Below, in pieces: positions 24,033 through 53,279 of a DNA stretch of 64,000 nucleotides. The notes beneath the pieces were generated by a model, which was given only the letters and a program-made list of their open reading frames with translations, made no database searches and was not told where the DNA came from. The first letter of the stretch is position 1. The number at the start of each line of letters is the position of its first letter. A program made the translations under genes and the position numbers. The stretch comes from Candidatus Dormiibacterota bacterium (GTDB lineage Bacteria; Chloroflexota; Dormibacteria; Aeolococcales; Aeolococcaceae), in contig DASYKI010000016.1 of NCBI GenBank assembly GCA_035995545.1, forward strand, positions 664,599-728,598, given 5' to 3'.

Positions 24033-24036
24033 CCTG

Positions 24037-26865: not shown

Positions 26866-27351
26866 ATGCGGATCCTGGGCATGAATCATGCCGTTCTCTA
26901 CGTTCGCGACGCGCAGGTGACCGCGGCGTTCTACGAGGGCCTCCTCGATTTCTCGCGGGTCATCGACGACCCGCGCTTCGTCTTCATGCGAGCCAACGCC
27001 TCGCCCAACCACCACGACGTCGCCTTCTTCACCGTCGGAGCGCAGGCCGCTGACTCCGGCGCCGGACACAGCAGTGTCGGCCTCTACCACGTCGCCTGGG
27101 AGGTGCCCACCCTCGACGACCTCGTCGCCTGCAGGGACCGCCTGGTCGCGGCGGGTGCGCTGGTGGGAGCGAGCGACCACGGCGCCAACAAGTCCCTGTA
27201 CGCGAAGGATCCTGACGGCCTCGAGTTCGAGGTCATGTGGCTGGTGCCCGCCGATCGGTGGGGCGAGGAGGAGCACGAGGCGATCATCCGCCCGCTCCTC
27301 CTCGACGACGAGGTGGCCAGGGACCGCGAGCTCAGTGGGAGAGTGGGATGA
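26866..27351 (+). CDS. VOC (glyoxalase/bleomycin-resistance/dioxygenase) family protein
   Basis: MRILGMNHAVLYVRDAQVTAAFYEGLLDF..HHDVAFF..GLYHVAWEV..GASDHGANKSLYAKDPDGLEFEV - paired beta-alpha-beta-beta-beta modules. Confidence 0.6.
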   Translation: MRILGMNHAVLYVRDAQVTAAFYEGLLDFSRVIDDPRFVFMRANASPNHHDVAFFTVGAQAADSGAGHSSVGLYHVAWEVPTLDDLVACRDRLVAAGALVGASDHGANKSLYAKDPDGLEFEVMWLVPADRWGEEEHEAIIRPLLLDDEVARDRELSGRVG

Positions 27352-27773
27352 ACCCCGTCACCCGGGGTCCGTCCCAGCCCGGCCTGGACGGACGTGACGC
27401 GGCGGACGGTGCGGCGGAGCGCCACGTCTGGCTGGCATCGGACGCGGACGCCCACGTCGAGTCGTCGCCGGGTTTGCGCCGCCGCATCCTCACCGGCCGG
27501 GACATGATGGTCGCCATGTGGCGGATCCGGGCGGGGTCGGGGCCGACGCCCTACGGCAACCACGCCGGCAACGAGCAGTTCGGCATCATCCTGCGCGGCT
27601 CGCTCGACTTCCGAATCAACGGTGAGCGGCGCGTGCTCGGGCCTGGCGACGTGTACTGGGCGCCGCCCGGCTGCGACCACGGCGACAGCCGCTTCGCCGG
27701 CGACGCCGACTCCGACGAGTGCTGGATCGCCGACATCTTCTGTCCGCCACGCGAGGACTACCGCAATGGCTGA
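27348..27773 (+). CDS. cupin-domain protein
   Basis: ATG 27348 overlaps the VOC stop (ATGA). The cupin barrel has the GNHAGNEQFGIILRGSLDFRINGERRVLGPGDVYWAPPGCDHG motif pattern. Confidence 0.6.
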   Translation: MNPVTRGPSQPGLDGRDAADGAAERHVWLASDADAHVESSPGLRRRILTGRDMMVAMWRIRAGSGPTPYGNHAGNEQFGIILRGSLDFRINGERRVLGPGDVYWAPPGCDHGDSRFAGDADSDECWIADIFCPPREDYRNG

Positions 27774-27810
27774 GTTGCGCAATGGCTGAGTCGTGCAATG
27801 GCTGACTGGC
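27763..27810. repeat. 3 tandem copies of a 16-bp unit (CAATGGCTGAGTTGCG / CAATGGCTGAGTCGTG / CAATGGCTGACTGGCG) spanning the cupin stop and hyuA start
   Basis: Read from the sequence. Copy 1 holds the cupin stop (AAT GGC TGA). Copy 3 holds the hyuA start (ATG GCT GAC). Each of copies 1 and 2 also contains an ATG followed by an in-frame TGA 7 codons later. Confidence 0.85.
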
Positions 27811-29924
27811 GCCTGGCCGTCGACATCGGCGGCACCTTCACCGACGTGGTGCTGCTCGACGCGGCGTCGGGCCGCGTGCTCACCGAGAAGACGCTGACCA
27901 CACCCGCGGACCCGCTGCAGGGCCTGCGGCGCGGTGTCGACGCACTGCTGTCGCGCGCCGCGGTCGAGCCCCGCGCCATCTCGCGCGCCACGGTGCACGC
28001 GACCACGCTGGTGACCAACGCGCTGATCGAGGGCAAGGGTGCGCGTACGGCGCTGGTGACCACCAGCGGCTTCGCGGACACCCTGCTGATCCGCAACGAG
28101 CACCGCTACGACATGTACGACCTGCAGATCGAGTTCCCCCCACCACCGGTGCCGCGTGAACTCACCTTCGAGGTCGACGAGCGCACCACCGCTGAGGGCG
28201 AGCTGCGCCGCGTGCCGGATATGGCCGCCGTCGACGAGCTCGCCGAGCAGCTCCGGGCGGCGGACGTGCAGGCGGTCGCCGTCTGCTTTCTGCACAGCTA
28301 CGCAAATCCGGCCAACGAACGCGAGGTCGGTGCGCGCCTGGCCGAGCTGCTGAACGTGCCGGTGTGCGTCTCCAGCGACGTCGCGCCGCAGATCCGCGAG
28401 TATCCCCGCGCGGTGACCACCGCGTGCAACGCGATCACCATGCCACTGGTCAGCCGCTACCTCGGCGAGCTGTCCGCGTGGCTGCAGGAGCGTGGCATCG
28501 GCGCAGGGCTGCAGATCATGCTCAGCAACGGGGGAGTGGTCGCGCCCGACGTCGCCGTGCGCATGCCGGTCCGCCTCGTCGAGTCGGGACCCGCCGCCGG
28601 TGCCCTGGCGGGGGCCTGGTACGCCGAGCGGCTCGGGGAGAGCCGGCTGCTCTGCTTCGACATGGGCGGGACAACGGCCAAGGCGTGCCTGATCGAGGAC
28701 TTCGAGCCGGCCCTGGCGGTCGACTTCGAAGTCGCCCGGGTGTACCGCTTCAAGCGCGGGTCGGGATACCCGGTGACGGTGCCGTCCATCGACCTGGTGG
28801 AGATCGGCGCCGGCGGCGGCAGCCTGGCGCGGGTCGACAGCCTCGGCCTGCTCAAGGTCGGCCCGGAGTCGTCCGGCGCCGAGCCCGGGCCGGCGTGCTA
28901 CGCCCGTGGTGGCACGGCTGCCGCCGTGACCGACTGCGACCTGCTGCTCGGCTATCTCGACCCCGAGCACTTTCTCGGCGGCGACATGCGCCTCGACCGC
29001 ACGGCCGCGGAGCGCGCTGTGGCCGGCCTGGCCGGCGAGCTCGGAGTCACCGTCGAGGCCGCAGCCATGGGCGTCCACGAAGTTGTCAACCAGAACATGG
29101 CCGCCTCGGCGCGCATGCACGCGGTCGAGCGCGGTGTCGATCTTCGCGGTGTCACCCTGCTCGCCTTCGGCGGAGCCGGGCCCGTGCACGCCTGCGGTGT
29201 CGCCGAGCTGCTCCAGGCTGACCGCGTCGTCTTCCCTCCGGACGCCAGCGTGCTGAGCGCCTTCGGCACCCTGGTCACTCCCATGCGCGTCGACCTCGCG
29301 CGCACGCTGGTGCGCCCGCTCGACGGAGTCGACGCTGCCGAGCGTGACGCTCTCCTCGCCGAACTGCGCGACGACGCTGTGCGCTCGCTGCAGAGTGCCG
29401 GCATCGAGGCCGCCGACATCCGGGTGCGCTACGGCGTGGACGCGCGCTACACGGGCCAGGGCCACGAGATCACGGTGTGGCTGGGCGAGGGCGACGGCTG
29501 GCCGGTCGATGCCGCGGAGGCGCAGCGGCGATTCGAGGAGGAGTACGCCCGCGTCTACGGACTCTCCATCGGCGGCATCCCCGTCGAGGTGGTCACCTGG
29601 CGTGTCGCCGTGTACGCGCCGGCGCCTGCACTGGACCGGCGCGGCGCGGCGCCGGCCGGCGAGGCGCAGCAACCCCGGCATCGCCTCGCCCACTTCGGCC
29701 GCAGCTCGCCGCCGGTGGAGGTGCCGGTGTTCGAGCGCCAGGCACTTGCGGTGGGGACGGTGATCGACGGTCCCGCCGTGGTCGAGCAGCGCGACACCAC
29801 CACGGTGCTGCGTCCCGGCTGGCGCGCCACGGTGGCGCCGGACGGGTCGCTCCTCGCCGTCCGTGTCGCCGTGGCCGGTGCCGTTCCCGCGCTCACCGAC
29901 CTCGCCGGCATCGCCGGTGCCTGA
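27798..29924 (+). CDS. hyuA: hydantoinase/oxoprolinase family protein, A subunit (ATP-dependent N-methylhydantoinase A / acetone-carboxylase-beta-like)
   Basis: 708 aa; N-terminal AVDIGGTFTDVVL (ASKHA ATPase fold), conserved Hydantoinase_A core. Confidence 0.85.
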   Translation: MADWRLAVDIGGTFTDVVLLDAASGRVLTEKTLTTPADPLQGLRRGVDALLSRAAVEPRAISRATVHATTLVTNALIEGKGARTALVTTSGFADTLLIRNEHRYDMYDLQIEFPPPPVPRELTFEVDERTTAEGELRRVPDMAAVDELAEQLRAADVQAVAVCFLHSYANPANEREVGARLAELLNVPVCVSSDVAPQIREYPRAVTTACNAITMPLVSRYLGELSAWLQERGIGAGLQIMLSNGGVVAPDVAVRMPVRLVESGPAAGALAGAWYAERLGESRLLCFDMGGTTAKACLIEDFEPALAVDFEVARVYRFKRGSGYPVTVPSIDLVEIGAGGGSLARVDSLGLLKVGPESSGAEPGPACYARGGTAAAVTDCDLLLGYLDPEHFLGGDMRLDRTAAERAVAGLAGELGVTVEAAAMGVHEVVNQNMAASARMHAVERGVDLRGVTLLAFGGAGPVHACGVAELLQADRVVFPPDASVLSAFGTLVTPMRVDLARTLVRPLDGVDAAERDALLAELRDDAVRSLQSAGIEAADIRVRYGVDARYTGQGHEITVWLGEGDGWPVDAAEAQRRFEEEYARVYGLSIGGIPVEVVTWRVAVYAPAPALDRRGAAPAGEAQQPRHRLAHFGRSSPPVEVPVFERQALAVGTVIDGPAVVEQRDTTTVLRPGWRATVAPDGSLLAVRVAVAGAVPALTDLAGIAGA

Positions 29925-29942
29925 CACAAAGGAGTGCGGTCG

Positions 29943-31541
29943 ATGCCGGTCGTGATCGACGCCGTCGAGCTGGAGGTGCTCTGGGGCAACCTGGTCAACA
30001 CCGTCAACGAGCAGGCGCGGGCCCTGCAGCGCGCCGCCTTCAGCCCCATCGTCCGCGAGGCGGGCGACCTGGCCAACGCGCTCTTCGACCAGCGCGGCCG
30101 CATGGTCGCCCAGGCGGTCACCGGCACGCCCGGCCACATCAACTCGCTGGCCATGGCGGCGCGCGAGATCCTCGCCGAGTATCCGCCGCAGGCGCTCGAA
30201 CCGGGGGATGTTCTGGTCACCAATGACCCGTACAAGACGGCCGGGCAGCTCCTCGACGTCACCGTGCTGACACCGGTGTGGCGCCAGCAGCGGATCATCG
30301 GCTTCTTCGGCTCGACCATCCATCACACCGATGTCGGCGGCTACGGGATCGGCGCGGGTGCTCGCGATGTGTTCGAGGAGGGCCTCTGGATCCCCATCAC
30401 CCGGCTGATGGTGGGCGGGCAACGCAACGTCGAGGCGTGGAAGTTCATCCTCGCCAACGTCCGCGAGCCCGACCACATGGCCGGAGACCTGCACGCGCAG
30501 ATGGCCTCCGCCGAGGTCGGTGCCCAGCGCCTGAACGCCCTCTGCGACGCGCGCGGTCTCGACGACATCGAGGCGCTCGCGGACGAGGTGATCCGCCGCT
30601 CCGAGGAGGCGACTCGCGCCGCCATCCGCCGCCTTCCCGCCGGGACCTACGAGGCGGAGTCGACGCTGGACCTTGCCGACGGCTCGGAGATCGTCATCCA
30701 CGTCGCGGTCACCGTCGACACCGAGAAGGGCGAGATCGCCGTCGACTACGCCGGCTCGTCACCGGCCAGCCCCTTCGGCATCAACGTGGTCAAGAACTAC
30801 ACCCAGGCGTACACCACCTTCACCATCCGCAGCGTCCTCAACCCCGAGGTGCCCAACAACACCGGCAGCCTGGCGCCGATCGTCGTCGACGCGCCCGCGG
30901 GCAGCATCGTCAACGCGCAGCTCCCGGCGCCGTGCACCGCGCGCCACGTGGTGGGCATGTTCCTGCCCATGCCGCTCCTCCAGGCGCTGAGCCGGTTCCT
31001 GCCCGAGGCGGTCATGGCCGAGGGGGCCGCGGCGGTCTGGACCATGCAGGTGCACGGCCACCGGCACGACGGCAGGCCCTTCGTCACCTCGATGTTCAAC
31101 TACGCCGGCGGAACCGGTGCGCGGGCGCACAAGCCCGGGCTGTCCGCCACCGCCTATCCCACCGGGGTCGCGGCGGTGCCGGTCGAGGTCGTCGAGGCGT
31201 CGGCTCCGCTGCTGTTCCTGCGCAAGGAGCTGCGCGAGGACTCCGGGGGTGTGGGACGCAGCCGGGGCGGCATGGGACAGGTGATCGAATTCACCGTCGA
31301 CACCGGCCGGCCCTGGATGCTCAACGCCGTCACCAGCAGGCTGCGCCACGGCCCGGCCGGGCTGTTCGGCGGCGGCCCCGGTGCGGTGGGCCGCTTCGTG
31401 GTCAACGGCGAGCCGGTGACCACGCAGCGCCGCATCGACCTGGAGTCCGGCGACCTGGTCCGCCTCGAGCTGCCCGGTGGCGGCGGCTACGGAGAACCGC
31501 TGCCCGCCGGTGCGGCCGGTGCCGGGAGCGCGGATGGATGA
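29943..31541 (+). CDS. hyuB: hydantoinase B/oxoprolinase family protein
   Basis: 532 aa; typical N-terminus (DAVELEVLWGNLVNTVNEQARALQRAAFSPIVREAGD) and LVTNDPY-type segments; directly follows hyuA. Confidence 0.85.
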   Translation: MPVVIDAVELEVLWGNLVNTVNEQARALQRAAFSPIVREAGDLANALFDQRGRMVAQAVTGTPGHINSLAMAAREILAEYPPQALEPGDVLVTNDPYKTAGQLLDVTVLTPVWRQQRIIGFFGSTIHHTDVGGYGIGAGARDVFEEGLWIPITRLMVGGQRNVEAWKFILANVREPDHMAGDLHAQMASAEVGAQRLNALCDARGLDDIEALADEVIRRSEEATRAAIRRLPAGTYEAESTLDLADGSEIVIHVAVTVDTEKGEIAVDYAGSSPASPFGINVVKNYTQAYTTFTIRSVLNPEVPNNTGSLAPIVVDAPAGSIVNAQLPAPCTARHVVGMFLPMPLLQALSRFLPEAVMAEGAAAVWTMQVHGHRHDGRPFVTSMFNYAGGTGARAHKPGLSATAYPTGVAAVPVEVVEASAPLLFLRKELREDSGGVGRSRGGMGQVIEFTVDTGRPWMLNAVTSRLRHGPAGLFGGGPGAVGRFVVNGEPVTTQRRIDLESGDLVRLELPGGGGYGEPLPAGAAGAGSADG

Positions 31542-33067
31542 CCGCCCCGGCCGGCACGCTGGCGGGTCGCTGGCAGCGCGCCGTCGCCGCCGTCCCCCTG
31601 CGCACCTTCCTGGTCTGGGAGGGATCTGACGCCGCCCTGCACTCCTGGACCTACGCGCGTTTCGACGCGCTGGTGGAGGAGGTCGCCGCGGGGCTGGCGG
31701 CGCGCGGTGTCGTCGCCGGGATGCGCGTCCACGTCGTCCTGGCCAACTCGCCGGCGTTCGTGGCCACCTGGCTGGCCGTGGCCAGGATGGGCGCGTGCAT
31801 GGTGCCGTCCGACCCGCGCTCGTCGCCGGTCGAGCTGGGCGTCCACGCCGCCCGGACGGCACCGGCGGTGGCCGTGGTCGGCCGCGGCAGCGCGGATGCG
31901 TACGCCGCGGGGGTCGCGGCCGGTGGGCCGGACGTGGTCGTCGTCGACGAGGACGACGTCGAGCTGACGCCGCTGCGCCGTCGCGCCGCCGCGCCCTCGC
32001 CGTCGCACCCTGTGCGGCCACGCGATCCCTGCGCCATCCTCTTCACCTCGGGCACCACCGCGGCGCCCAAGGGAGTTGTGGTCACACAGGGCAATTACGC
32101 GTTCGCCGGCGACGTCATGGCCGCCGCGGCCGGGCTCGGGGCCGCGGATCGCTACATCGTCGTGCTGCCGCTCTTCCACGCCAACGCCCAGTACTACGCG
32201 TTCGCGCCGGCGATCAGCGTGGGCGCGTCGGTGGCCCTCGTGCATGCGTTCTCGGCGACAGCGTTCCTCACCCAGGCGGCCCGGCATCGGGCCACCCACG
32301 CCAGCCTCTTCGCGGCGCCGCTGCGGATGATCCTGGCGCGTGGCACGCCGTCCCGGCCGGTGCGCCTGCGCCACTGCTGGTATGCGCAGAACGTCACCGC
32401 CGACCAGTACGAGCAGATGGCGCTGCTCCTCGGCTGCCGGCCGCGCCAGCTCTACGGGATGACCGAGACGATTCCCGCCGTGCTCAGCAGTGGTCCGCTG
32501 TCACCGCGCCACGACAGCATGGGCGAGGTCACCTTGGGCTGCGACGTCGACCTGCACGACGCCGAGGGCCGCCCTGTGCGCGACGGCGACGCGGGCGAGA
32601 TCGTGGTGCGCGGCACTCGCGGTGGCACGCTGTTCGACGGCTACCTCGACGACGAGGCCACCACGCGGGAGAGCTTCGCGGGCGGTGTCTTCCGCACCGG
32701 CGACCGGGCCTTTCGCGACGGCGACGGCCGCCACTACTTCGCCGGCCGCCGCGGCGACATGCTCAAGGTGTCCGGCGAGAACGTCTCCGCCGTCGAGGTG
32801 GAGGCTGTGCTGGCCGCGCACCCGGGGGTCTTCGAGGCGGCGGTCACCGGCATGCCCGACGACGTGCGCGACGAGGTCCCGGTGGCCTGGGTGGTGCGCG
32901 CCACCGGCCACGAGTCCGTCGACGAGGAGTCGCTGCTGGGCTGGTGCGCCACCCGCCTGTCGCCGGCCAAGCGTCCCCGCGCCGTGCACTTCGTCGACGA
33001 GCTGCCGCGCACATCGGTGGGCAAGATTCGCAAGTTCCTGCTCAGTGTTCCCCGTGGCCCGCGGTAG
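31538..33067 (+). CDS. AMP-dependent synthetase/ligase (acyl-CoA ligase)
   Basis: ATG 31538 overlaps the hyuB stop (ATGA). Carries the AMP-binding motif ILFTSGTTAAPKGVV, and YGMTETIP, GEIVVRG, GDMLKVSGENVS and the final GKIRK lysine. Confidence 0.8.
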   Translation: MTAPAGTLAGRWQRAVAAVPLRTFLVWEGSDAALHSWTYARFDALVEEVAAGLAARGVVAGMRVHVVLANSPAFVATWLAVARMGACMVPSDPRSSPVELGVHAARTAPAVAVVGRGSADAYAAGVAAGGPDVVVVDEDDVELTPLRRRAAAPSPSHPVRPRDPCAILFTSGTTAAPKGVVVTQGNYAFAGDVMAAAAGLGAADRYIVVLPLFHANAQYYAFAPAISVGASVALVHAFSATAFLTQAARHRATHASLFAAPLRMILARGTPSRPVRLRHCWYAQNVTADQYEQMALLLGCRPRQLYGMTETIPAVLSSGPLSPRHDSMGEVTLGCDVDLHDAEGRPVRDGDAGEIVVRGTRGGTLFDGYLDDEATTRESFAGGVFRTGDRAFRDGDGRHYFAGRRGDMLKVSGENVSAVEVEAVLAAHPGVFEAAVTGMPDDVRDEVPVAWVVRATGHESVDEESLLGWCATRLSPAKRPRAVHFVDELPRTSVGKIRKFLLSVPRGPR

Positions 33068-33093
33068 ACCCGGCATGCCGCCCCGACGCCACG

Positions 33094-33123
33094 TTGTCAG
33101 ACCATCTGACTATCAGTTATGCT
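33094..33123 (+). promoter_or_regulatory. sigma70-like promoter (-35 TTGTCA, 18-bp spacer, -10 TATGCT) with palindrome GTCAGACC-A-TCTGAC in the spacer (candidate GntR autoregulatory operator) - P2, upstream of the GntR gene
   Basis: acgTTGTCAGACCATCTGACtatcagtTATGCTggcc read from the sequence, ~100 bp upstream of ATG 33220. Confidence 0.45.
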
Positions 33124-33219
33124 GGCCACGCTGGCCGGCACACCACGGCGGTGGCCCCGGCGGCGCTGGATTGGAGAGTTGGCGATGAATGCAAGCGTTG
33201 AACTCATCGAGGCGGCATC

Positions 33220-33939
33220 ATGACGATCGTAGCGGGTCACTTCGGGCCCGTCGACAGGCGCACCGTGTCCCAGGAGGTGCGGGACCGGCTCTTCGAAGCC
33301 ATCCGCTCTGGGGCGCTGCGGCCCGGCGCGGCACTGCCGTCGGAGCGCTCGCTGTGCGACGACTTCGGCGTGGCCAGGACGTCGGTGCGTGAGGCCATCC
33401 AGGGCCTGGTCTCCCTCGGCCTGCTGGAACGGCGCAGCAACCGGACCTACGTGGCCGAGCTGCTGCCCGACCTCCCGGTCTCCGCCGCCGACAACCGCAA
33501 GGTCAAGGTCTCCGAGCTGTTCGAGGTCCGCGAGGCCATCGAGGTGCCGATGGTGCGCCTCACCGCCGCGCGGGCCAGCGACCGCCAGCGCGCCGAGATC
33601 GCCGAGCTGGCGGGCCGCTTCTCGCCGCGCATGGCGGTCGAGGACTTCCGCCGGCAGGATTACGAGTTCCACTCCAAGCTGGCCGCCGCCTGCGGCAACG
33701 ACCTGCTCGCCGAGCTGTACGGCAAGGTGCTCGATCGACTCTTCCACGCCAACGAGTTCTCGTCACTTCTGACGGCAACGGTCAACCGCCGCGCGGTGCG
33801 GCAGATCATCCGCGACTCGGTGGCCAGCCATCAGGCGATTGCCGACGCGGTGATGCGCCGATCCGCAGCCGATGTCACCGCGTCGGTGGAGGCCCATCTC
33901 GCCCAGGTCGAGTCGCAGCTCAACGCCGAGCTGATATGA
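33220..33939 (+). CDS. GntR-family transcriptional regulator, FadR/FCD subfamily
   Basis: N-terminal winged HTH (LPSERSLCDDFGVARTSVREAIQGLVSLGLLERR) plus an all-alpha C-terminal FCD-like domain. Confidence 0.8.
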   Translation: MTIVAGHFGPVDRRTVSQEVRDRLFEAIRSGALRPGAALPSERSLCDDFGVARTSVREAIQGLVSLGLLERRSNRTYVAELLPDLPVSAADNRKVKVSELFEVREAIEVPMVRLTAARASDRQRAEIAELAGRFSPRMAVEDFRRQDYEFHSKLAAACGNDLLAELYGKVLDRLFHANEFSSLLTATVNRRAVRQIIRDSVASHQAIADAVMRRSAADVTASVEAHLAQVESQLNAELI

Positions 33940-34018
33940 GCGGTCCGTGACCCGCGGGTCCGACCAGGGCCGGCTGCGGCCGGCACCGTCGTCCGTGGGC
34001 GCGGGCAAGCAGCGTCGC

Positions 34019-36853: not shown

Positions 36854-36858
36854 ACCAG

Positions 36859-37839: not shown

Positions 37840-37843
37840 CCCC

Positions 37844-38611: not shown

Positions 38612-38646
38612 CACCCCGCGGCCGGCTCGTCAGTATCGGTCAGACC
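38608..38646 (+). promoter_or_regulatory. sigma70-like promoter (-35 TTGACA, 17-bp spacer, -10 CAGTAT) followed by palindrome GGTCAGACC (candidate GntR operator) - P4, upstream of the VOC-SDR-HpcH unit
   Basis: cgcTTGACAccccgcggccggctcgtCAGTATcGGTCAGACCaactgttagacagt read from the sequence. Confidence 0.45.
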
Positions 38647-38709
38647 AACTGTTAGACAGTCCTTTGCCATCCGTGGAGACCAGCGCTGAACACCCTCGTC
38701 TTCGTCGAC

Positions 38710-45253: not shown

Positions 45254-45258
45254 GACGC

Positions 45259-46176: not shown

Positions 46177-47228
46177 GCATGGTCAGCACCGGCCTCGCCG
46201 CCACCGCGCGCGCCAGCTCTGAGCGCGACGATGCCGCAGCGCTGGCCGTCGACGACCTCGAGGTGGTGATCGCCGCCACCGGACGGCGGGTGCACGCGGT
46301 GCAGGGCGTCAGCTTCGCGGTGGCTCCCGGCGGGACGCGCATCCTGCTCGGTGAGAGCGGCTGCGGCAAGTCGGCCACGCTGCGCGCCGTGATGCGCCTG
46401 TTCGGCCGCGACACGGTGATCCGCGGCAGGGTCCGGCTCGACGGGCACGACCTGCTCACCCTGCCCGACCGCGACATGCGCTCCGTGCGCGGCCGCGATG
46501 TCGCCCTGGTGCCGCAGGATCCCAATGCAGCCCTCGACCCGCTGCGACGCGTCGGCGGCCAGCTCGCCGAGCAGCTGCGCGCGCATCAGCCCGACATGGG
46601 CCGGCGCCAGGCGAGCCGGCGTGCCGAGGAGCTGCTGCACATGGTGCGCCTGCCCGATCCCAGGAGTGCCGCGCGTGCGTTTCCCCACGAGCTGTCGGGC
46701 GGCATGCGCCAGCGCGTGGCCATCGCCCTGGCGGTGAGCTGCTCGCCCAAGGTGCTGCTCGCCGACGAGCCGACCACCGCGCTCGACGTCACCGTGCAGG
46801 CGCAGATCCTCGAACTGCTCGCCGGGCTGCAGCAGACCATGCAGATGGCCCTGCTGCTGGTCACCCACGACGTCGGCGTCGTCCGCGAGCTGGGTGGGTC
46901 GATCAGCGTGATGTACGCCGGCCGCGTGGTCGAGGACGGTGCGGTCGCCGACGTCCTCGACCGTCCCGCCCATCCGTACCTGGCCGGACTGCTCGCCTCG
47001 CAGCCCGGTCCCGGCGTGGCCCGCGGCGGGCTGATCCCGATCGCGGGACAGCCGCCGTCGCTGGAGGAGAGTGCGCTGGTGCGGGGGTGCGCGTTCCACG
47101 AGCGCTGCGCCTCCGCGCGCGAGCAGTGCACGCGGGCGCAGCCGCCGCTGGTTGCGGTCAGGCCTGGCCATGACGCCGCCTGCCCGGTGTGGAACCCACC
47201 GCAGGGCGGCGAGGCGGTGCAGCCGTGA
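46173..47228 (+). CDS. ABC transporter ATP-binding protein (DppD-like, with C-terminal oligopeptide extension)
   Basis: Walker A GESGCGKS, signature LSGGMRQR, Walker B LLADEPTTALD. Confidence 0.8.
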   Translation: MSMVSTGLAATARASSERDDAAALAVDDLEVVIAATGRRVHAVQGVSFAVAPGGTRILLGESGCGKSATLRAVMRLFGRDTVIRGRVRLDGHDLLTLPDRDMRSVRGRDVALVPQDPNAALDPLRRVGGQLAEQLRAHQPDMGRRQASRRAEELLHMVRLPDPRSAARAFPHELSGGMRQRVAIALAVSCSPKVLLADEPTTALDVTVQAQILELLAGLQQTMQMALLLVTHDVGVVRELGGSISVMYAGRVVEDGAVADVLDRPAHPYLAGLLASQPGPGVARGGLIPIAGQPPSLEESALVRGCAFHERCASAREQCTRAQPPLVAVRPGHDAACPVWNPPQGGEAVQP

Positions 47229-48232
47229 CGCCGCTGCTGGAGGTGACCGGGCTGCACAAGACGTACGACAACGGCGTGCGCGCCGTCAACGGCATCGACC
47301 TGCACGTCGATCGTGGCGAGACGCTCGGCGTGGTCGGCGAGTCGGGCTCGGGAAAGTCGACAGCCGCGCGGCTGATCCTGCGACTCACCGAGCCGGACGC
47401 CGGGGCGGTGCGGCTCGAAGGCGAGGACGTGCTGGCGATGCGCGGTCGCCGCCTGCGCGAGGCGCGGGGCCGGATGCAGTTCGTGCCGCAGGACCCCGCC
47501 AGCGCGCTCAACCCGCGCATGACGGTGCGGCAGAGCATCGAGTTCAACCTGCGCGCCCACCGCTGGCCGGCGCCGGCGCGGCGCGAACGCATTGCCGAGC
47601 TCCTCGACGCCGTCGGCCTGGGTGCGGAGATGAGCGGGCGGCGTCCACACGAGCTGTCGGGCGGGCAGGTGCAGCGTGTCGCCCTGGCGCGTGCACTGGC
47701 AACACGTCCCGACCTGGTCATCTGCGACGAGCCGGTGTCCGGTCTCGACCGCAGCGTCCAGGCACAGGTGCTCAACCTGCTGGTGCGGCTGCAGCGCGAG
47801 CTCGGTGTGGCCATGATCTTCATCTCCCACGACCTCACCGTCGTGGAGCACATCGCCGACCGTGTCGCGGTGATGTACCTCGGCACCGTGGTCGAGGAGG
47901 CCAGTGCCGAACGCTTGTGGCACAACGCCATGCACCCGTACTCCCGCGCGCTGCTGTCGGCGATCCCGGGGACGTCGGGGGCGCGCATCATCCTGGAGGG
48001 TGATCCGCCGAGCCCGCGCGCCGTGCCGTCCGGCTGCGTGTTCAGCTCGCGGTGCGCATACGCGATCGACGAGTGCAGGCGTGCCGTCCCGCCGCTGGAG
48101 GACAGGGGCGCGCACCAGCGGGTCGCCTGCATCCGCGCACCGATCGCGTGGGCCGAGCTCTCGCCCCTCGATCCCGCCTCGCTGAATGCGAGTCGTGGCG
48201 CGAGCAACGGCCTCACGGCACACCCCGCGTGA
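47225..48232 (+). CDS. ABC transporter ATP-binding protein (DppF-like)
   Basis: Walker A GESGSGKST, signature LSGGQVQR, Walker B VICDEPVSGLD; GTG start overlapping the previous stop. Confidence 0.8.
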   Translation: MTPLLEVTGLHKTYDNGVRAVNGIDLHVDRGETLGVVGESGSGKSTAARLILRLTEPDAGAVRLEGEDVLAMRGRRLREARGRMQFVPQDPASALNPRMTVRQSIEFNLRAHRWPAPARRERIAELLDAVGLGAEMSGRRPHELSGGQVQRVALARALATRPDLVICDEPVSGLDRSVQAQVLNLLVRLQRELGVAMIFISHDLTVVEHIADRVAVMYLGTVVEEASAERLWHNAMHPYSRALLSAIPGTSGARIILEGDPPSPRAVPSGCVFSSRCAYAIDECRRAVPPLEDRGAHQRVACIRAPIAWAELSPLDPASLNASRGASNGLTAHPA

Positions 48233-49608
48233 TCGACCTCCTGCTGACCAACGCGGAGGTGGTGACGCCCTCGGGAGTCGTGCACGGAGACGTGGCCGTC
48301 GACGGCGGGCGCATCGTCGCGGTGGGGCAGGATGCCGGCGACGCACGGCGAGTCATCGACGTCGACGGGCGCATCGTGATGCCCGGTGTCTTCGACCCGC
48401 ACGTCCACTTCGGCCTGGCCGGGACCTACGGCGACGACACCATGCTGGAGGACTTCCGGCACAACACGCGCGACTGCCTGGTCGGCGGTGTCACCACCGT
48501 GGCCACGACCACCCTGCCCGGCGCCGACCTGGTCGTCGAGTACGAGCGCACCGCCGCGGTCGCCGTGGGGCATTCGTGGTGTGACTACCGGCTCGTCTCC
48601 ATCGTCGGACGGCGACCCCAGGTGGCCCAGATCCGCGAGGTGGTGGCCCGCGGCGGCACCGCCTTCAAGTTCTTCACCGGCATGGTGGGCAACGAGGCGG
48701 TGGCCCTGGGCGGAACCCCGGAGGGCATTCCCCCCGACTTCTTCCTGGAGGCGTGCGACGCGCTGCGCGCCACCGGCAGCGGTGCCTTCCCGATGATCCA
48801 CGCGGAGGAGCCGTCGGTGCGCGGCGCGCTGCTCGACCGCGTCCGCCGCTCGGGTCGTGCTGACCACCTGGTCGCCTGGGCGGACGCCAGTCCCGCGTGG
48901 GCGGAGAGTGCGCAGATCTACGGCTACGGGCTGGTGGCGCGCCAGGCCCGCGTTCCGCTGTATCCCGTCCATCTCAGCGCCGCGGAGAGCATCGACACCG
49001 TCGCCGTCCTGCAGAGCCAGGGATTCGACGTGCCCGCCGAGACCGTCGTCCACTACCTGTGCACCACCGCGGACGAGATCCAGCTCGCCGGCCTGGGTGT
49101 CCGGGCCAAGGTGCAGCCGCCGATCCGCTTCGAGCGCGACCGGCAGCGCCTCTGGCGCGGCATCGCCGAGGGCACCATCAAGGTGGTCGGCACCGACAGC
49201 GGCACGTACTCGCTGAGCATGCGCCAGGGTCCCGACTTCTGGGAGTGCCGCGTCGGCCTGCCGCTGCAGGTGGCCGACACCCTGCCGCTGATGTACACCG
49301 AGGGTGTCGCCGCCGGACACATCGACCTGCTCACCCTGTCCCAGGTGCTCAGTGCGAATGCGGCGCGGCTGCACGGGATCTACCCGCGCAAGGGAGCCAT
49401 CGCGCCGGGCAGCGACGCCGACATCGTGGTGATCGACCAGCACACTCCGGTGCGGCTGGGGGCGCACCGCTATCGCGGGCACACCGACTACACGCTGTGG
49501 GAGGGCCGCGAGGTGACCGGTGTGCCGGTGATGACCTTCCTGCGCGGCAAGCTGGTCATGCAGGACGGCGAGATCGTCGACGAGGTGCCCACCGGTGTCG
49601 CCGTCTAG
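48229..49608 (+). CDS. cyclic amidohydrolase (hydantoinase/dihydropyrimidinase-like, amidohydrolase superfamily)
   Basis: HxH metal motif in PGVFDPHVHFGLAG; candidate carboxylated-lysine context FKFFTGM; the GTG start overlaps the previous stop. Confidence 0.7.
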   Translation: MIDLLLTNAEVVTPSGVVHGDVAVDGGRIVAVGQDAGDARRVIDVDGRIVMPGVFDPHVHFGLAGTYGDDTMLEDFRHNTRDCLVGGVTTVATTTLPGADLVVEYERTAAVAVGHSWCDYRLVSIVGRRPQVAQIREVVARGGTAFKFFTGMVGNEAVALGGTPEGIPPDFFLEACDALRATGSGAFPMIHAEEPSVRGALLDRVRRSGRADHLVAWADASPAWAESAQIYGYGLVARQARVPLYPVHLSAAESIDTVAVLQSQGFDVPAETVVHYLCTTADEIQLAGLGVRAKVQPPIRFERDRQRLWRGIAEGTIKVVGTDSGTYSLSMRQGPDFWECRVGLPLQVADTLPLMYTEGVAAGHIDLLTLSQVLSANAARLHGIYPRKGAIAPGSDADIVVIDQHTPVRLGAHRYRGHTDYTLWEGREVTGVPVMTFLRGKLVMQDGEIVDEVPTGVAV

Positions 49609-50857
49609 CCCGCCGCCGGCTCGCCGCACCTGGGACAGGCTGCGCGAGCTCGCTGAGATCACCGCTCCCGGCGACGGCGTCTCCCGCGACGGCTACAGCG
49701 CCTATGAACGTCTCGCCCAGGACCTGGTCGGCGCTTGGATGCGCGACGCGGGCCTGAGCGTGACGCGCGATCATGCGGGCAACCTGCGCGGGCGCGTTGC
49801 CGGCCGGGATCCGCTGCTGCCCGCGGTGTGGGTGGGCTCGCACCTCGACTCCGTTCCCGGCGGCGGGCGCTTCGACGGAGCCTACGGCGTGGTCGGCGGC
49901 CTGGCCGCCGTCGAGGCGGCGACGGGCGGCGAGACGCCGCTGCGCTCCATCGAGCTGGTCGCGTTCGCATGTGAGGAGGGCGCGCGCTTCGGCACGGGGC
50001 TGCTGGGCAGCCGCGGGCTGGTCGAGGGCTGGGCGGACGTCGACGTCGACGCGCTGGTCGACCGCGACGGTGTGAGCCTGCGCGCCGCGCTCGCCTCGGT
50101 CGGGCTCGACGCCGAGGCGGTGCGTGCGCCGTCACTGACGCCGGGCAGCGTCCACTGCTTCGTGGAGCTGCACGTCGAGCAGGGTCCGGTGCTCGACACC
50201 GCGGCAGCGACCATCGGCGTGGTCAGCGCCATCGCCGCACCGACGTACCTGCGTGTGCGATTCGAGGGAGCCGCGGGACACGCCGGGACGACACCCATGG
50301 TGGGGCGGCGCGACGCGCTGGTGGGTGCTGCCGAGGCGATCCTGGAGGTGGAGCGCGCCGCGCGCTCGTATGACGGCGCCGCCGTCTCGACGGTCGGGTT
50401 CCTGGCCGTGCACCCCAACTCCGCCAACGTGATCCCCGGCAGCGTGACCTTCTCCGTCGACGTGCGCGCCCTCGATGCGGACACCAAGCGGCGGCTGGTG
50501 GAGGAGATCGCGGCCGGCCTGCAGCGAACCGCGCAGGCGAGGTCGCTGCAGCTCAGCGTCGCGACGCTCGCCGACCTGGCACCGGTGGCGTGCCACCCGC
50601 CGATCCAGGGCGCGGTGCGCGACGCGGCGACGTCGCTGGGGCTGCCCTGGCTCGACATGCCCAGCGGCGCGTACCACGACGCCATGGCGATGAGCCGGGT
50701 GTGCCCGGTGGGCATGGTGTTCGTCCCCAGCGCGCGCGGGTTGAGCCACGTCGCCGAGGAGTGGACCAGCCCGGACGACCTGGAGCACGGCGTCGACGTC
50801 CTCGCCGAGGTGCTGCGCACGCTCGCATCCACGACAGGCATCGAAGGAGCAGGGTGA
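49595..50857 (+). CDS. M20-family Zn amidase of the hydantoinase/carbamoylase group (N-carbamoyl-amino-acid or allantoate amidohydrolase-like)
   Basis: Carries the HAGNLRGRVAG, VWVGSHLDSVPGGGRFDGAYGV and FACEEGARFG metal-ligand pattern typical of AmaB/AllC-like enzymes. Confidence 0.75.
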   Translation: MSPSSPPPARRTWDRLRELAEITAPGDGVSRDGYSAYERLAQDLVGAWMRDAGLSVTRDHAGNLRGRVAGRDPLLPAVWVGSHLDSVPGGGRFDGAYGVVGGLAAVEAATGGETPLRSIELVAFACEEGARFGTGLLGSRGLVEGWADVDVDALVDRDGVSLRAALASVGLDAEAVRAPSLTPGSVHCFVELHVEQGPVLDTAAATIGVVSAIAAPTYLRVRFEGAAGHAGTTPMVGRRDALVGAAEAILEVERAARSYDGAAVSTVGFLAVHPNSANVIPGSVTFSVDVRALDADTKRRLVEEIAAGLQRTAQARSLQLSVATLADLAPVACHPPIQGAVRDAATSLGLPWLDMPSGAYHDAMAMSRVCPVGMVFVPSARGLSHVAEEWTSPDDLEHGVDVLAEVLRTLASTTGIEGAG

Positions 50858-52233
50858 TGACCACGACACTACTCACGGGCGGCACGGTTGCCTCGGCGAT
50901 GGGGTCGTACCCGGCGGACGTCCTCATCGACTCGGGACGCATCGCCGCCGTGGGTGCCGGCGCCGGCTTCGTGGCCGACCGGGTTGTGGACGTGAGTGGC
51001 AAGATCCTGCTGCCCGGCGGCGTCGACGTGCACACCCACCTCGACGCGCCGTTCATGGGCACGATCACGGCCGACGACTTCAACACCGGCACCATCGCCG
51101 CGGCCTGCGGCGGCACCACCACCATCGTCGACTTCGCCATGCAGTCGCGCGGCCAGAAGCTGGGCGCGGTGCTGGAGCAGTGGCACGCCAAGGCCGCGGG
51201 TCGCGCCGCCGTCGACTACGGGTTCCACATGGCCGTGACCGACCTCTACGACGGCGCCGTCGCCGACATGGACGGGGTGATCCGCGACGGCGTGACCAGC
51301 TTCAAGCTGTTCATGGCCTACAAGGGCCAGATCATGCTGGACGACGGCGAGATCTTCCGCATCCTGCGCACGGCGGGACGCTCCGGCGCCACCGTGTGCC
51401 TGCACGCGGAGAACGGCTACATCATCGACGTGCTCGCCGAGGAGCTGGTGCACTCGGGCAAGCGCGACCCCACCTTCCACGCCGTCTCGCGTCCCCCGGC
51501 CACCGAGATCGAGGCGGTACGCCGGGCCATCGCCATCGCGCGCATGGCCGATGCGCCGGTGTACTTCGTCCACCTGTCGACCGCCGGAGCGGTGGACGCG
51601 GTTGGCGAATCGCGGATGTCGGGATGGCCGGTGGCGGGGGAGACGTGCACCCACTACCTGCTGCTCGGCCCCGAGCTGTACGACGCGCCCGACTTCGAGG
51701 GCGCCAAGGTGGTGCTCACCCCGCCGCTGCGCGAGGCGCCCGACCGCGAGGCGCTGTGGGCGTCGCTGCGCACCGGCGTGCTCAGCGTTGTCAGCTCGGA
51801 CCACTGCCCGTTCTGCTTCGTCGGGCAGAAGGAAATGGGTCGCGACGACTTTCGCAAGATCCCCAACGGCGGCCCCGGGATCGAGCACCGCCTCCTGCTG
51901 CTCTACGGGCAGGGCGTGCGGCAGGGTCGGCTCACCCTGGAGCAGTTCGTCGACGTCGTGGCCACGTCACCCGCCAAGCAGTTCGGGCTCTTTCCCCGCA
52001 AGGGCGCGATCCTCCCCGGGGCGGACGCCGACGTCGTCGTGCTCGACCCCGCTGGGACCACCACGATCGCCGCCGCGACGCAGCACCAGAACCTCGACTA
52101 CACGCCGTACGAGGGCTGGACCGTGCCCGGACGCATCGACGCGGTGTACCTGCGCGGCGAGCTGGTCGTGCGCGACGGCGACTACGTGGCCGCCGCACCG
52201 GGAGGTGCGTTCCTGGCACGCAGAACGCTGTGA
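50857..52233 (+). CDS. D-hydantoinase/dihydropyrimidinase
   Basis: HxH in GGVDVHTHL, carboxylated-lysine motif FKLFMAYKG, and downstream His in VCLHAENG. Confidence 0.8.
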   Translation: MTTTLLTGGTVASAMGSYPADVLIDSGRIAAVGAGAGFVADRVVDVSGKILLPGGVDVHTHLDAPFMGTITADDFNTGTIAAACGGTTTIVDFAMQSRGQKLGAVLEQWHAKAAGRAAVDYGFHMAVTDLYDGAVADMDGVIRDGVTSFKLFMAYKGQIMLDDGEIFRILRTAGRSGATVCLHAENGYIIDVLAEELVHSGKRDPTFHAVSRPPATEIEAVRRAIAIARMADAPVYFVHLSTAGAVDAVGESRMSGWPVAGETCTHYLLLGPELYDAPDFEGAKVVLTPPLREAPDREALWASLRTGVLSVVSSDHCPFCFVGQKEMGRDDFRKIPNGGPGIEHRLLLLYGQGVRQGRLTLEQFVDVVATSPAKQFGLFPRKGAILPGADADVVVLDPAGTTTIAAATQHQNLDYTPYEGWTVPGRIDAVYLRGELVVRDGDYVAAAPGGAFLARRTL

Positions 52234-53279
52234 CCGACTACGCGCACCTGGTGCGCAGCGATCGCGTCCACCGGCGGCTGTATGTCGACCAGGACATCTT
52301 CGCCGACGAGATGGAGCGCATCTTCGGCCGCAGCTGGGTGTACCTCGCTCACCAGAGCGAGCTGCCCTCGCCTCTGGACGAGGCGATGGCGGATCTCGGC
52401 AGGCGCATGGCGCGTATCGCGTCGTATCGCGGGCTGATCTTCGGTTCGCGCAGCGACGACGTGCCGCCGCTGGCCGAGCATCTCGGCGCCGTGGCGGGCC
52501 TGCTCGACCAGTGGCTCGACCGTGCGCCGGACGGCGAGGTGTTCGTCGGCCATGGCACCCGGGTGATCAGCGCGCGTGCCAACTGGAAGCTGTACCTGGA
52601 CGGTGCGGCCGATGGCCTGCACCCCCTGTTCACCCATCGCTCCTACCTGGAACTCTCGTCGCAGCGCAGCGGGTCGCGCAAGTTCCTCTCCGAGTTCCGG
52701 GCCGATCCCGACCGCACCGCGATGTACGCGCAGGTGCTCGGCGACGGCCACCAGTTCCTCGACCAGCGCCCGACGCGGCAGCCGTCGCTGTGGAGTGCGA
52801 TGCCCAAGGTTCCCGGCACCGAGCACGTGGTGGCGCAGATCTCGGCGCGGTACGGCGATCGCACTCCCGCGGTTCTGGAACGCACCGCCTTCGCCGCCAT
52901 GAACATCTTCGTCTTCCCCAATCTCTCCATCGTCGAGAACGCCATCGGCGTGATCTGCCCGCTGGCGGTCAACCGCACCGAGGTGCGCTGGTCGCGGGTG
53001 AGCCTCAGGGGAGCTGAGCCCGAGGCGTTGCCGCTGCAGATGCGGCTCGCCGAGGAGTCGGACGGCTTCATCGACGTCGACGACATCGAGAACTGGGAGC
53101 GCGCCCAGGAAGGCCTGGAGGCGGTGCCCGAGGCGGAGTGGCTGCACACCGGGCGCGGACTGGGGCTGCCGTCGACGCGCGATGATCGCGGCGTCGAGAC
53201 CGTGGCGGTGACCAACGAGGCGCCGATGCGCGCCTACCAGGCCGAGTGGCTGCGCCTGATGACGCGGCGGCCGGACTAG
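52230..53279 (+). CDS. Rieske-less paralog of the oxygenase alpha subunit (catalytic mononuclear-iron domain only)
   Basis: Aligns by eye with the 42368..43714 protein at both ends (N-terminal RRLYVDQDIFADEMERIFG; catalytic ANWKLYLDGAADGLHPLFTHRS; C-terminal VENWERAQEGLEAVPEAEWLHTGRG). The ~95-aa segment with CxH..CxxH is replaced by LDEAMADLGRRMARI. No beta subunit follows. Confidence 0.7.
   Translation: MTDYAHLVRSDRVHRRLYVDQDIFADEMERIFGRSWVYLAHQSELPSPLDEAMADLGRRMARIASYRGLIFGSRSDDVPPLAEHLGAVAGLLDQWLDRAPDGEVFVGHGTRVISARANWKLYLDGAADGLHPLFTHRSYLELSSQRSGSRKFLSEFRADPDRTAMYAQVLGDGHQFLDQRPTRQPSLWSAMPKVPGTEHVVAQISARYGDRTPAVLERTAFAAMNIFVFPNLSIVENAIGVICPLAVNRTEVRWSRVSLRGAEPEALPLQMRLAEESDGFIDVDDIENWERAQEGLEAVPEAEWLHTGRGLGLPSTRDDRGVETVAVTNEAPMRAYQAEWLRLMTRRPD

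Follow-up and report, generated by a model that had tools for sequence, protein, structure and literature searches.

A probable mosaic catabolic regulon joining a lactamase/CoA-ligase cassette, a Rieske oxygenase, and cyclic amidohydrolases in a Dormibacterota bacterium

Results

Gene organization of the catabolic block

The DNA analyzed here, a stretch of 64,000 nucleotides (nt) of a Candidatus Dormiibacterota genome (contig DASYKI010000016.1, positions 664,599 to 728,598; "the window" below), carries a block of 25 consecutive genes, all on the plus strand, at positions 26860/26866-53279 (~26 kb). An earlier note on this DNA had described the block as a supercluster under a shared operator. 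The comparisons presented below point instead to a lineage-specific mosaic catabolic regulon, not one ancestral pathway, in which the operator of one module has spread to three further units; we give this reading a probability of about 0.65.

With a window G+C content of ~72%, raw lists of open reading frames were swamped by spurious frames, and genes were called by third-position G+C (GC3). Families were assigned with Pfam and NCBIfam, with an additional comparison to PDB sequences. The genes group into module A (g01-g05), a regulator (g06), module B (g07-g11), an aldolase/kinase set of sugar-like character, a separate short unit (g12-g14), module C (g15-g21), and module D (g22-g25). They form four transcription units, g01-g05, g06-g11, g12-g14, and g15-g25. 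Only three internal gaps exceed 40 nt (152, 98, and 93 nt), and most of the remaining junctions are overlaps of 1-14 nt or spacings of at most 24 nt. The genes are as follows, L-numbers denoting loci of relatives:

26866-27351, plus: g01, VOC/glyoxalase-fold protein (PF00903); homologs at 59-77% identity precede the cassette in most long loci of relatives
27348-27773, plus: g02, small cupin (PF07883), kept in the cassette at 42-70% identity
27798-29924, plus: g03, HyuA-type subunit of an ATP-dependent cyclic amide hydrolase, 708 amino acids (PF05378, PF01968, PF19278)
29934-31541 (start 29943 in the Joint Genome Institute (JGI) call), plus: g04, HyuB-type subunit, 532-535 amino acids (PF02538); relatives 68-88% identical
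31538-33067, plus: g05, AMP-forming acyl-coenzyme A (CoA) ligase (PF00501, PF13193); relatives at 50-67%, directly after HyuB
33220-33939, plus: g06, GntR-family regulator with FCD domain (PF00392, PF07729); 76% identical homolog within the L083 cassette, and homologs in most cassette loci
33947-34777, plus: g07, DhnA/DeoC-type class I aldolase (PF01791); best PDB matches MJ0400, archaeal FBA I, and LsrF
34782-35819, plus: g08, aldo-keto reductase (AKR; PF00248); 52% identical homolog in L060
35816-36853, plus: g09, Zn-dependent medium-chain dehydrogenase (MDR; PF08240, PF00107)
36892-37839, plus: g10, APH-fold kinase-like protein (PF01636), with neither an NCBIfam match nor a PDB sequence match
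37844-38611, plus: g11, two-module VOC protein (PF00903 and PF18029, two stretches)
38710-39078, plus: g12, VOC protein (PF18029, PF00903); homologs at 38-44% in Acidimicrobiia loci
39075-39875, plus: g13, short-chain dehydrogenase (SDR; PF13561)
39888-40676, plus: g14, HpcH/HpaI class II aldolase (PF03328), below all equivalog cut-offs
40770-42371 (JGI start 40905), plus: g15, family-5 solute-binding protein (SBP; PF00496); homologs at 48-49% in L001, L003, and L004
42368-43714, plus: g16, Rieske oxygenase alpha subunit (PF00355, PF00848)
43711-44301, plus: g17, Rieske oxygenase beta subunit (PF00866)
44309-46176, plus: g18 and g19, ABC permeases (PF00528); homologs at 55% and 64-65% in L001, L003, and L004
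46173-48232, plus: g20 and g21, ABC ATPases with oligo_HPY domain (PF00005, PF08352)
48229-49608, plus: g22, divergent cyclic amidohydrolase, L-hydantoinase-like (PF01979); best PDB match 1GKR (Arthrobacter L-hydantoinase), 2.5e-54
49595-50857, plus: g23, M20 N-carbamoyl-amino-acid amidohydrolase family (TIGR01879, 392 against a cut-off of 204 bits; NF006771, 424 against 399 bits)
50857-52233 (start from the JGI call), plus: g24, dihydropyrimidinase/D-hydantoinase (TIGR02033, 590 against 393 bits)
52230-53279, plus: g25, Rieske oxygenase alpha paralog without the [2Fe-2S] segment (PF00848 only)

Every gene class listed in the earlier note was recovered by Pfam and NCBIfam on the plus strand at 26866-53279. 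Its four VOC proteins correspond to four VOC modules carried by three genes (g01, g11, and g12), and the cupin g02 (27348-27773) and the Rieske-less nature of g25 are additions to its list. Curated NCBIfam thresholds are passed by just two proteins of the cluster, g23 and g24; for all other enzymes the assignment is at the family level.

Over 23220-43939, 28104-34916, 38229-59608, and 45704-59608, the window is matched at 100.000% identity by JGI contigs (samples 3300035673 and 3300041409) and by a Logan assembly (SRR11678605). Since all module junctions are reproduced in these other assemblies, the block is not a chimera. The contigs represent the same population as the window and carry no information on evolutionary conservation.

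Regulator, operators, and promoters

A palindrome of the TGGTCWGACCA type lies upstream of g01 and in each of the three gaps longer than 40 nt. The four sites, scored with a position weight matrix (PWM), are:

26794-26840, plus: O1 (TATGGTCTGACCATCAGT) with overlapping promoter-like site TTGACG-18-TATGGT, ~40 nt upstream of g01; 32.7 bits
33088-33123, plus: O2 (TTGTCAGACCATCTGAC), overlapping the -35 hexamer of a promoter-like site upstream of the gntR gene; 14.7 bits
38627-38653, no strand assigned: O3 (CGGTCAGACCAACTG), the weakest site, upstream of g12; 10.3 bits
40691-40737, plus: O4 (TATGGTCTGACCATCAGT) with overlapping promoter-like site TTGACC-18-TATGGT, 55 nt upstream of g15; 30.4 bits

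The PWM was built from 61 distinct sites, all from related loci and none from the window. It ranks the positions 26814, 40711, 33088, and 38627 first in the window, the next best site scoring 5.3 bits. The sites before g01 and g15 have an exact 18-mer in common, with 0 such repeats expected by chance. The shared operator claimed in the earlier note is thus real, its four sites standing far above background in a matrix derived from relatives, and control through a single operator is likely.

A scan of 26500-41000 for consensus promoters returned only three sigma-70-like promoters (0.3 expected), all on the plus strand and each overlapping an operator. The operator covers the -10 hexamer at 26794-26823 and 40691-40720, and the -35 hexamer at 33094-33123. 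An operator placed over promoter hexamers is the classical arrangement for repression by promoter occlusion, and g06 is the presumed repressor of the four units. By sequence, the locus has the components of an FCD-type GntR regulon, namely a helix-turn-helix and an FCD domain in the regulator and a conserved palindromic operator at the promoters that would be regulated. It resembles FadR-subfamily (FCD) GntR repressors in the N-terminal winged helix-turn-helix followed by FCD and in the TNGTNNNACNA-type palindromic operator overlapping promoter hexamers, but differs in a regulon that appears widened to four units in the window lineage.

The operator is also abundant among relatives. In 80 HyuB-related loci, TGGTCWGACCA occurs in 70 copies per 925,542 nt, compared with 0.36 expected; 29 copies, which follow the extended consensus CTATGGTCWGACCATCAGWCC, lie 33-88 nt upstream of a VOC homolog, and 15 precede a GntR homolog. 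As the module A operator is placed before module B, the VOC-SDR-HpcH unit, and modules C and D, all four units are probably co-regulated in the window lineage.

Assortment of the modules in related loci

Two scans probed the junctions between modules. A HyuB-centered metagenome scan gave 80 loci, 38 of them at least 12 kb long, which probe the A-B junction; partner genes in these loci were counted by targeted tblastn. A Rieske-centered genome scan, based on an alignment of Rieske alpha homologs, gave 80 loci, with tblastn of all 25 window proteins, and probes the B-C and C-D junctions. The best Rieske alpha match in the latter is 59% identical, and that collection holds no close relative of the window organism.

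Homologs of g01-g06 are present in nearly all of the 38 long HyuB-centered loci, at 40-88% identity, and homologs of g07, g09, g10, g11, g15, g17-g19, and g22-g25 in none of them. In locus L083, for example, VOC (77%), GntR (76%), cupin (70%), HyuA (79%), HyuB (89%), and ligase (65%) are found with an operator 43 nt upstream of VOC, the cassette being followed by an alpha-only Rieske gene, an RraA-like protein, and a Bmp-type ABC system. On a contig of a sponge-associated Acidimicrobiaceae, the VOC-cupin-HyuA-HyuB-ligase series adjoins a molybdenum hydroxylase. The usual partners of the cassette are a GbcA-like alpha-only Rieske protein (37/38), a Bmp-family SBP (30/38), ABC components (25-27/38), and a VanA-like Rieske protein (12/38). 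Orthologs of these partners are absent from the window, where the GbcA-like Rieske protein has its sole match inside g16 (28% over 204 residues) and the Bmp SBP has no match.

Soil, freshwater, and marine (Tara) metagenomes contain the GntR-operator-cassette unit with HyuA and HyuB at 58-89% identity, nearly always accompanied by a GbcA-like Rieske protein and a Bmp-type importer. The window holds the same six genes, with TGGTCWGACCA upstream of both VOC and gntR. To judge from these sequences, the operator, GntR, and module A are a widespread stand-alone regulon.

The metagenome loci L087-L166 (e.g., L150, 5087-19146), from soil, freshwater, and marine samples, carry this conserved regulon with 1-4 copies of TGGTCWGACCA. 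Their layout comprises GntR, sometimes a VanA-like Rieske protein, VOC, cupin, HyuA, HyuB, CoA ligase, a GbcA-like Rieske protein, and a Bmp-type ABC importer, and no characterization of it was found in the literature searched. Kynureninase and 3-hydroxyanthranilate dioxygenase genes beside the L150 cassette hinted at an anthranilate route, which was dropped as they occur in 1 of the 38 long loci only.

Module C has relatives of its own. Three loci of Acidimicrobiales / 'Ca. Aldehydirespirator' (L001, L003, and L004) have the order RieskeA-RieskeB-permease-permease-ATPase-ATPase-SBP5 at 48-65% identity, with a P450 and two ligases upstream and without hydantoinases. In L001/L003 (1-17311), which include the closest relative of the Rieske alpha subunit (59%, Acidimicrobiales metagenome-assembled genome), the two ligases before the Rieske-ABC module are AMP-dependent. 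This suggests that CoA-activating enzymes accompany the oxygenase-importer module in further lineages as well.

The core of module B occurs in yet other surroundings. A g07 homolog (53-59%) lies directly upstream of Rieske beta-alpha genes (43-46%) in 26 of the 80 Rieske-centered loci, all from Acidimicrobiia. Of these, 22 also have a homolog of the MDR g09 (53-59%). A g12-like VOC (38-44%) is often present among the 26, and an AKR, HpcH, or SDR sometimes. There the B-core genes stand beside the Rieske genes without ABC importer or hydantoinases. These 26 loci (a subset of L015-L082; e.g., L060, 4638-20710) run from a DhnA-type aldolase through Rieske beta and Rieske alpha to MDR, VOC, and AKR. 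L060 further contains an amidase, a formamidase, a deaminase-type amidohydrolase, DUF1989, an FGGY kinase, and an MFS transporter, so that the theme of a Rieske enzyme with aldolase, MDR, VOC, AKR, kinase, and amide hydrolases recurs with non-orthologous parts. In L081 and L082, the operator motif lies between an alpha-only Rieske gene and a g12-like VOC gene.

Module D is found in none of the 80 Rieske-centered loci, where homologs of g22 and g24 never occur near Rieske homologs. An M20 gene lies near a Rieske homolog once (L008, 38%), next to a g06-like GntR (49%), and the two g22 homologs with 65% and 57% identity have unrelated neighborhoods. None of the A-B, B-C, and C-D junctions is conserved outside the window population. 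With module A and GntR occurring without B, C, and D in 38 loci, C without D, and the B core without importer or hydantoinases, the units assort independently in relatives, the very outcome that the earlier note had named as refuting its view, and the idea of a coherent supercluster is largely refuted.

The HyuA/HyuB cassette

The HyuA and HyuB genes of module A are adjacent (9-18 nt apart, depending on the HyuB start chosen) and encode the three HyuA domains and the HyuB domain of the Hyd branch. The best PDB matches of g03 are N-methylhydantoinase 7hk5 (1e-111) and caprolactamase 6yra (7e-106); g04 is distant from both (170 and 155 bits). Scores of 489.7 bits for HyuA and 189.7 bits for HyuB fall far short of the caprolactamase CapA/CapB equivalogs (cut-off 1000 bits), although these are the nearest of the curated models. 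Those for the acetone/acetophenone carboxylase models ApcC (250 bits), ApcA (177 bits), and ApcD (81 bits) lie far below cut-offs of 1250-1500. A Pfam scan of the cluster finds no gene for a gamma (Zn, four-Cys) subunit. With 532-535 amino acids, HyuB is within the short range (~530-580) and well below the 776 amino acids of the acetone carboxylase alpha subunit. Members of the hydrolase branch of the family are recognized by a two-gene hydAB arrangement and short subunits (PMC5214803). By these sequence features, HyuA/HyuB is assigned as a two-subunit enzyme without gamma, on the ATP-dependent lactamase/hydantoinase side of the family rather than with the ketone carboxylases.

HyuA homologs at 63-79% identity number in the thousands; one at 65% (P0230) belongs to Embleya hyalina, a candidate cultured host of the canonical regulon. 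The start of g05 overlaps the stop of g04 by 4 nt, and g05 passes no NCBIfam equivalog. In indoleacetate degradation, a CoA ligase cooperates with a Hyd-type gamma-lactamase (PMC5214803), a pairing that fits the invariant HyuB-ligase coupling of the cassette. The conserved companion of HyuA/HyuB in the cassette is a CoA ligase rather than a carbamoylase, a composition that points to a lactamase and not to the hydantoinase role earlier proposed for the pair. The most likely reaction of HyuAB with the translationally coupled ligase is opening of a lactam ring, the substrate being a carboxylated compound or the CoA thioester of one.

The importer, the Rieske oxygenase, and the cyclic amidohydrolases

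The nearest PDB matches of the SBP g15 (HbpA, GsiB, AgaA, and DppA) are too distant to name a ligand. The g16/g17 pair has the make-up of a three-component Rieske oxygenase alpha/beta, with invariant cluster ligands and DxxHxxxxH motif. The g16 protein is 100% identical to a protein (P0001) of an NCBI Ca. Dormibacteraeota metagenome-assembled genome, the nearest other homologs being 56-59% identical.

The last gene of the operon, g25, encodes a paralog of this alpha subunit. Its residues 3-59 and 60-344 align to residues 15-71 and 146-431 of g16 at 54% and 58% identity. The deleted part corresponds to g16 residues 72-145, which hold the invariant Cys/His cluster ligands C90, H92, C110, and H113. 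Both the N-terminal stretch of 57 residues and the catalytic domain, including its mononuclear-iron motif DGAADGLHPLFTHRS, are kept. The reading frame is uninterrupted, GC3 is high, and translational coupling links the gene to the dihydropyrimidinase gene g24; its product (P0034) is the only Rieske-less match among the 120 homologs listed. The g25 protein might join mixed alpha hexamers, borrowing the Rieske center of a neighboring subunit.

Both g22 and g24 carry the residue set of the cyclic amidohydrolase superfamily (HxH, carboxylated Lys, His, His, and Asp). In an alignment of g22, g24, and five homologs, the binuclear metal ligands (in g22 H58, H60, K147, H191, H248, and D323) do not vary. 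However, g22 remains under every NCBIfam cut-off, with just 249 bits against 393 for TIGR02033. The best PDB match of g23 is the L-carbamoylase 3N5F. Assignment of g22/g23 as the ergothioneine enzymes ErtD/ErtE was ruled out by scores of 192 against 600 and 392 against 520 bits, and by the lack of ergothionase-type genes. Among its called genes, the 64-kb window encodes no ferredoxin, reductase, hydantoin racemase, or dihydropyrimidine dehydrogenase. Neither Asp/Glu-racemase-family nor NCS1 proteins are among its called genes, so that module D does not make up an Arthrobacter-type hyu operon. Nor is the reductive pyrimidine set PydA/B/C complete: a PydB-like g24 and the M20 protein g23 are present, with no PydA-like gene in the window, although one could sit elsewhere in the genome.

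Comparison with characterized systems

No characterized ortholog of this gene combination was found in curated models or the literature searched, in line with the earlier view that it is no textbook pathway. The best sequence matches of the HyuA/HyuB pair, the Pseudomonas jessenii caprolactamase CapAB (6YRA), N-methylhydantoinase (7HK5), and 5-oxoprolinase, have the same domains and HyuA-then-HyuB order and no gamma subunit. The relationship is distant, and the window pair sits in a conserved CoA ligase/VOC/cupin cassette that those systems lack.

The anaerobic indoleacetate (iaa) pathway of Aromatoleum combines an indoleacetate-CoA ligase with a predicted 2-oxoindoleacetyl-CoA gamma-lactamase of the Hyd branch (PMC5214803). 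It resembles the window in using a CoA ligase and a two-subunit Hyd-type lactamase for a benzo-fused lactam, a likeness drawn from the description of the pathway. It differs in its molybdenum hydroxylase, B12 mutase, and CoA transferase, which the window lacks, and the window uses oxygenases.

In the skatole-induced skt cluster of Rhodococcus, Rieske alpha/beta subunits (SktAB) occur with the caprolactamase-like SktIJ (bioRxiv 10.1101/2024.12.29.630347), so that, as in the window, a Rieske alpha/beta pair accompanies a HyuB/HyuA-type lactamase, there co-induced by an indole-type heterocycle. Two Rhodococcus loci (L020 and L045) with a layout matching skt encode Rieske alpha subunits 45-47% identical to g16. 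The window HyuA and HyuB, by contrast, are only 40-41% and 27% identical to the proteins of these loci. The skt GS-like, GAT-like, styrene-monooxygenase-like, and ferredoxin/reductase genes have no window counterpart, and the skt regulator is of the LuxR type.

Classical hydantoin genes are arranged as hyuP-hyuA-hyuH-hyuC in Arthrobacter aurescens and as hyuABCE in Pseudomonas sp. NS671. The statement in the earlier note that hydantoin utilization uses either D-hydantoinase plus carbamoylase or HyuA/HyuB was too strong, given that Pseudomonas sp. NS671 combines HyuA/HyuB with an M20 carbamoylase. In the window, the L-hydantoinase-like g22 likewise adjoins the M20 gene g23, and HyuA/HyuB lie in the same locus as in NS671. 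However, racemase and NCS1 permease are missing, g22 is under the curated cut-offs, HyuA/HyuB belong to another, ligase-linked cassette, and the operon adds dihydropyrimidinase and Rieske genes.

The lumichrome (lum) operon of Nocardioides simplex comprises 25 genes, including pyrimidine/ureide-ring hydrolases, Rieske alpha/beta, an extradiol dioxygenase, a cupin, and a retro-aldol step, with the P450 LumU, the thiamine diphosphate (ThDP) decarboxylase LumKL, and the xanthine oxidase LumJ as signature enzymes (PMC12746152). Its likeness to the window as a long mixed operon for an N-heterocycle is one of architecture only, drawn from its description. Identity with it was ruled out: Pfam finds no P450, ThDP decarboxylase, or xanthine oxidase family in the cluster, and ferredoxin and reductase are absent from the window.

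Regions flanking the cluster

On the left, a perfect 50-nt direct repeat occurs at 11365-11414 and 26716-26765. The first copy is the 3' half of a tRNA-Thr(GGT) gene (11340-11414) and the second lies just left of O1. The repeats look like attL/attR of an integrated element of ~15.35 kb (11415-26765) with a lower G+C content of 67-69%. Its cargo includes a LuxR-type response regulator, a GAF histidine kinase, a Usp protein, a GNAT/ADP-forming acyl-CoA synthetase, a Zn-ADH, and a PAS-HD protein. As no integrase is recognizable in the two gene-poor stretches next to the repeats, the element may be decayed. Until it inserted, the tRNA gene and the catabolic cluster would have been immediate neighbors.

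The right flank (53276-64000) resembles further catabolic genes. It starts with a gene for a 381-amino-acid protein without Pfam match, convergent with g25 with a 4-nt overlap. A TetR gene, two Amidohydro_2 genes, a cyclase-family protein (isatin hydrolase/kynurenine formamidase-like), an enoyl-CoA hydratase, and a second TetR follow, and the last genes encode an FMO/BVMO-like flavoprotein, an ABC permease and ATPase, and an SDR. The GntR operator is absent from this flank, the best PWM score there being 5.0 bits at 54744. At 4327-4612, between an SDR gene and a gene for a 707-amino-acid protein without Pfam match, lies an intergenic tandem array of ~8.7 copies of the 31-nt unit CGTTCCCCGTGCTGGCAGCCGCCGGGTCCCCC, 79% matching.

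Discussion

Taken together, the operators and the assortment of the modules favor a mosaic regulon in which a widespread GntR-controlled cassette has recruited neighbors. In the window lineage the usual Rieske and Bmp partners of the cassette are absent and the operator has been set before three further units. These are the gntR gene with the DhnA-aldolase/AKR/MDR/kinase/VOC set; the VOC-SDR-HpcH aldolase unit; and the translationally coupled 11-gene operon with a Dpp-type ABC importer, alpha/beta Rieske oxygenase, two cyclic amidohydrolases, M20 carbamoylase, and Rieske-less alpha paralog. The enzyme families are all known, and their combination was found in the window population only.

The most likely function is the uptake of lactam or ureide N-heterocycles together with their oxygenation and the hydrolytic opening of their rings, which upholds the general theme suggested earlier, and the modules may act on one family of substrates. 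This family is possibly indole- or oxindole-like, or another aryl-bearing lactam or ureide. What the sequences show directly is the gene content, the operon structure, the conservation of the operator, and the modular assortment; from these we infer the following order of steps. The repressor would occupy the -10 or -35 hexamers until an effector builds up, and the Dpp-type importer would bring in one or more N-heterocyclic or amide-containing compounds. The Rieske enzyme may then hydroxylate the aryl or heteroaryl part with electron carriers encoded elsewhere. Cyclic ureide or imide rings would be opened by g22 and g24, with g23 removing the carbamoyl group, while g05 and g03/g04 would carry out a CoA-linked, ATP-dependent lactam opening. 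Processing of the remaining carbon skeletons could fall to the aldolase, dehydrogenase, kinase, and VOC enzymes.

Several points weigh against this interpretation. The pairing of g06 with the operator is deduced from their co-conservation alone, O2 (14.7 bits) and O3 (10.3 bits) are weak sites, and co-regulated units need not share a single substrate. Equivalog cut-offs are reached by none of the enzymes in modules A, B, and C, so their reactions are assigned at the family level, and the window encodes no cognate ferredoxin or reductase for the Rieske oxygenase. The comparisons with relatives extend 10 kb to either side of the query gene, and with the nearest Rieske alpha subunit only 59% identical, an unsampled clade could well share the mosaic. 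It could also be that the dihydropyrimidinase and the M20 amidase simply serve reductive pyrimidine catabolism and share the operon by chance.

This last point leads to the alternative that survives best, although we consider it unlikely. Module D and the importer would serve ordinary, PydB/PydC-like nitrogen scavenging from dihydropyrimidines, hydantoins, and N-carbamoyl amino acids, with unrelated neighbors sharing only the promoter region. It is consistent with g24 passing the dihydropyrimidinase equivalog and g23 the hydantoinase/carbamoylase family model, with the L-carbamoylase and L-hydantoinase as best PDB matches of g23 and g22, and with the classical pairing of dihydropyrimidinase and M20 amidase types. 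Yet g22-g25 are translationally coupled to the Rieske and ABC genes (junctions of -14 to +7 nt), and the g15-g25 operon bears a strong module A operator. The window has no dihydropyrimidine dehydrogenase or hydantoin racemase, and scavenging leaves the second, divergent amidohydrolase and the Rieske-less alpha paralog unexplained.

More doubtful still is one dedicated pathway in which all 25 products act in sequence on a single complex substrate, such as a flavin, pterin, lumazine-like, or aryl-hydantoin compound, combining a cyclic ureide or imide, an aromatic or heteroaromatic ring, and a polyol or alkyl chain. The operator common to all four units would suit such a pathway, and the 25-gene lumichrome operon of Nocardioides simplex is a precedent for a long mixed operon on one N-heterocycle (PMC12746152). 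Against this, the lum signature enzymes are absent from the window. Acidimicrobiia loci such as L060 also mix Rieske, amide hydrolases, aldolase, MDR, kinase, VOC, and AKR, but the L060 kinase and amide hydrolases come from other families than those of the window, and the modules assort independently in every relative examined.

Finally, that HyuA/HyuB is an ATP-dependent ketone carboxylase of the acetone/acetophenone type, whose beta-keto acid product is then activated by the adjacent CoA ligase (cf. benzoylacetate-CoA ligase), is very improbable and was rejected on subunit composition and best matches: an Apc operon does contain a CoA ligase gene (PMC5214803) and HyuA matches Apc and Acx subunits at 1e-44 to 1e-71, but there is no gamma-subunit gene, HyuB has 535 instead of 776 amino acids, N-methylhydantoinase and caprolactamase are the best matches by a wide margin, and the published family criteria put a two-gene hydAB in the hydrolase branch (PMC5214803).

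Within the mosaic reading, we tentatively suggest, as a proposal somewhat short of even odds, that the GntR-operator-VOC-cupin-HyuAB-ligase unit represents an uncharacterized pathway of worldwide distribution whose substrate would be an abundant N-heterocyclic metabolite of the lactam type. The window would then show this regulon expanding, its operator copied to the operon of alpha/beta Rieske, Dpp-importer, and hydantoinase genes and to the aldolase/kinase module, which would yield a broader-range system for heterocycle degradation with a Rieske-less alpha paralog among its parts. The practical value is moderate, the hydantoinase, carbamoylase, and lactamase being of biocatalytic interest. 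The analysis separates an exotic-looking cluster into testable parts, one of which is a widespread, conserved, and apparently uncharacterized ATP-dependent lactamase/CoA-ligase regulon with a well-defined operator. This regulon is a good target for finding a new N-heterocycle or lactam catabolic pathway. The window itself would be a clear example of the spread of a repressor operator to recruited operons in Dormibacterota, a phylum without cultured representatives studied for catabolism.

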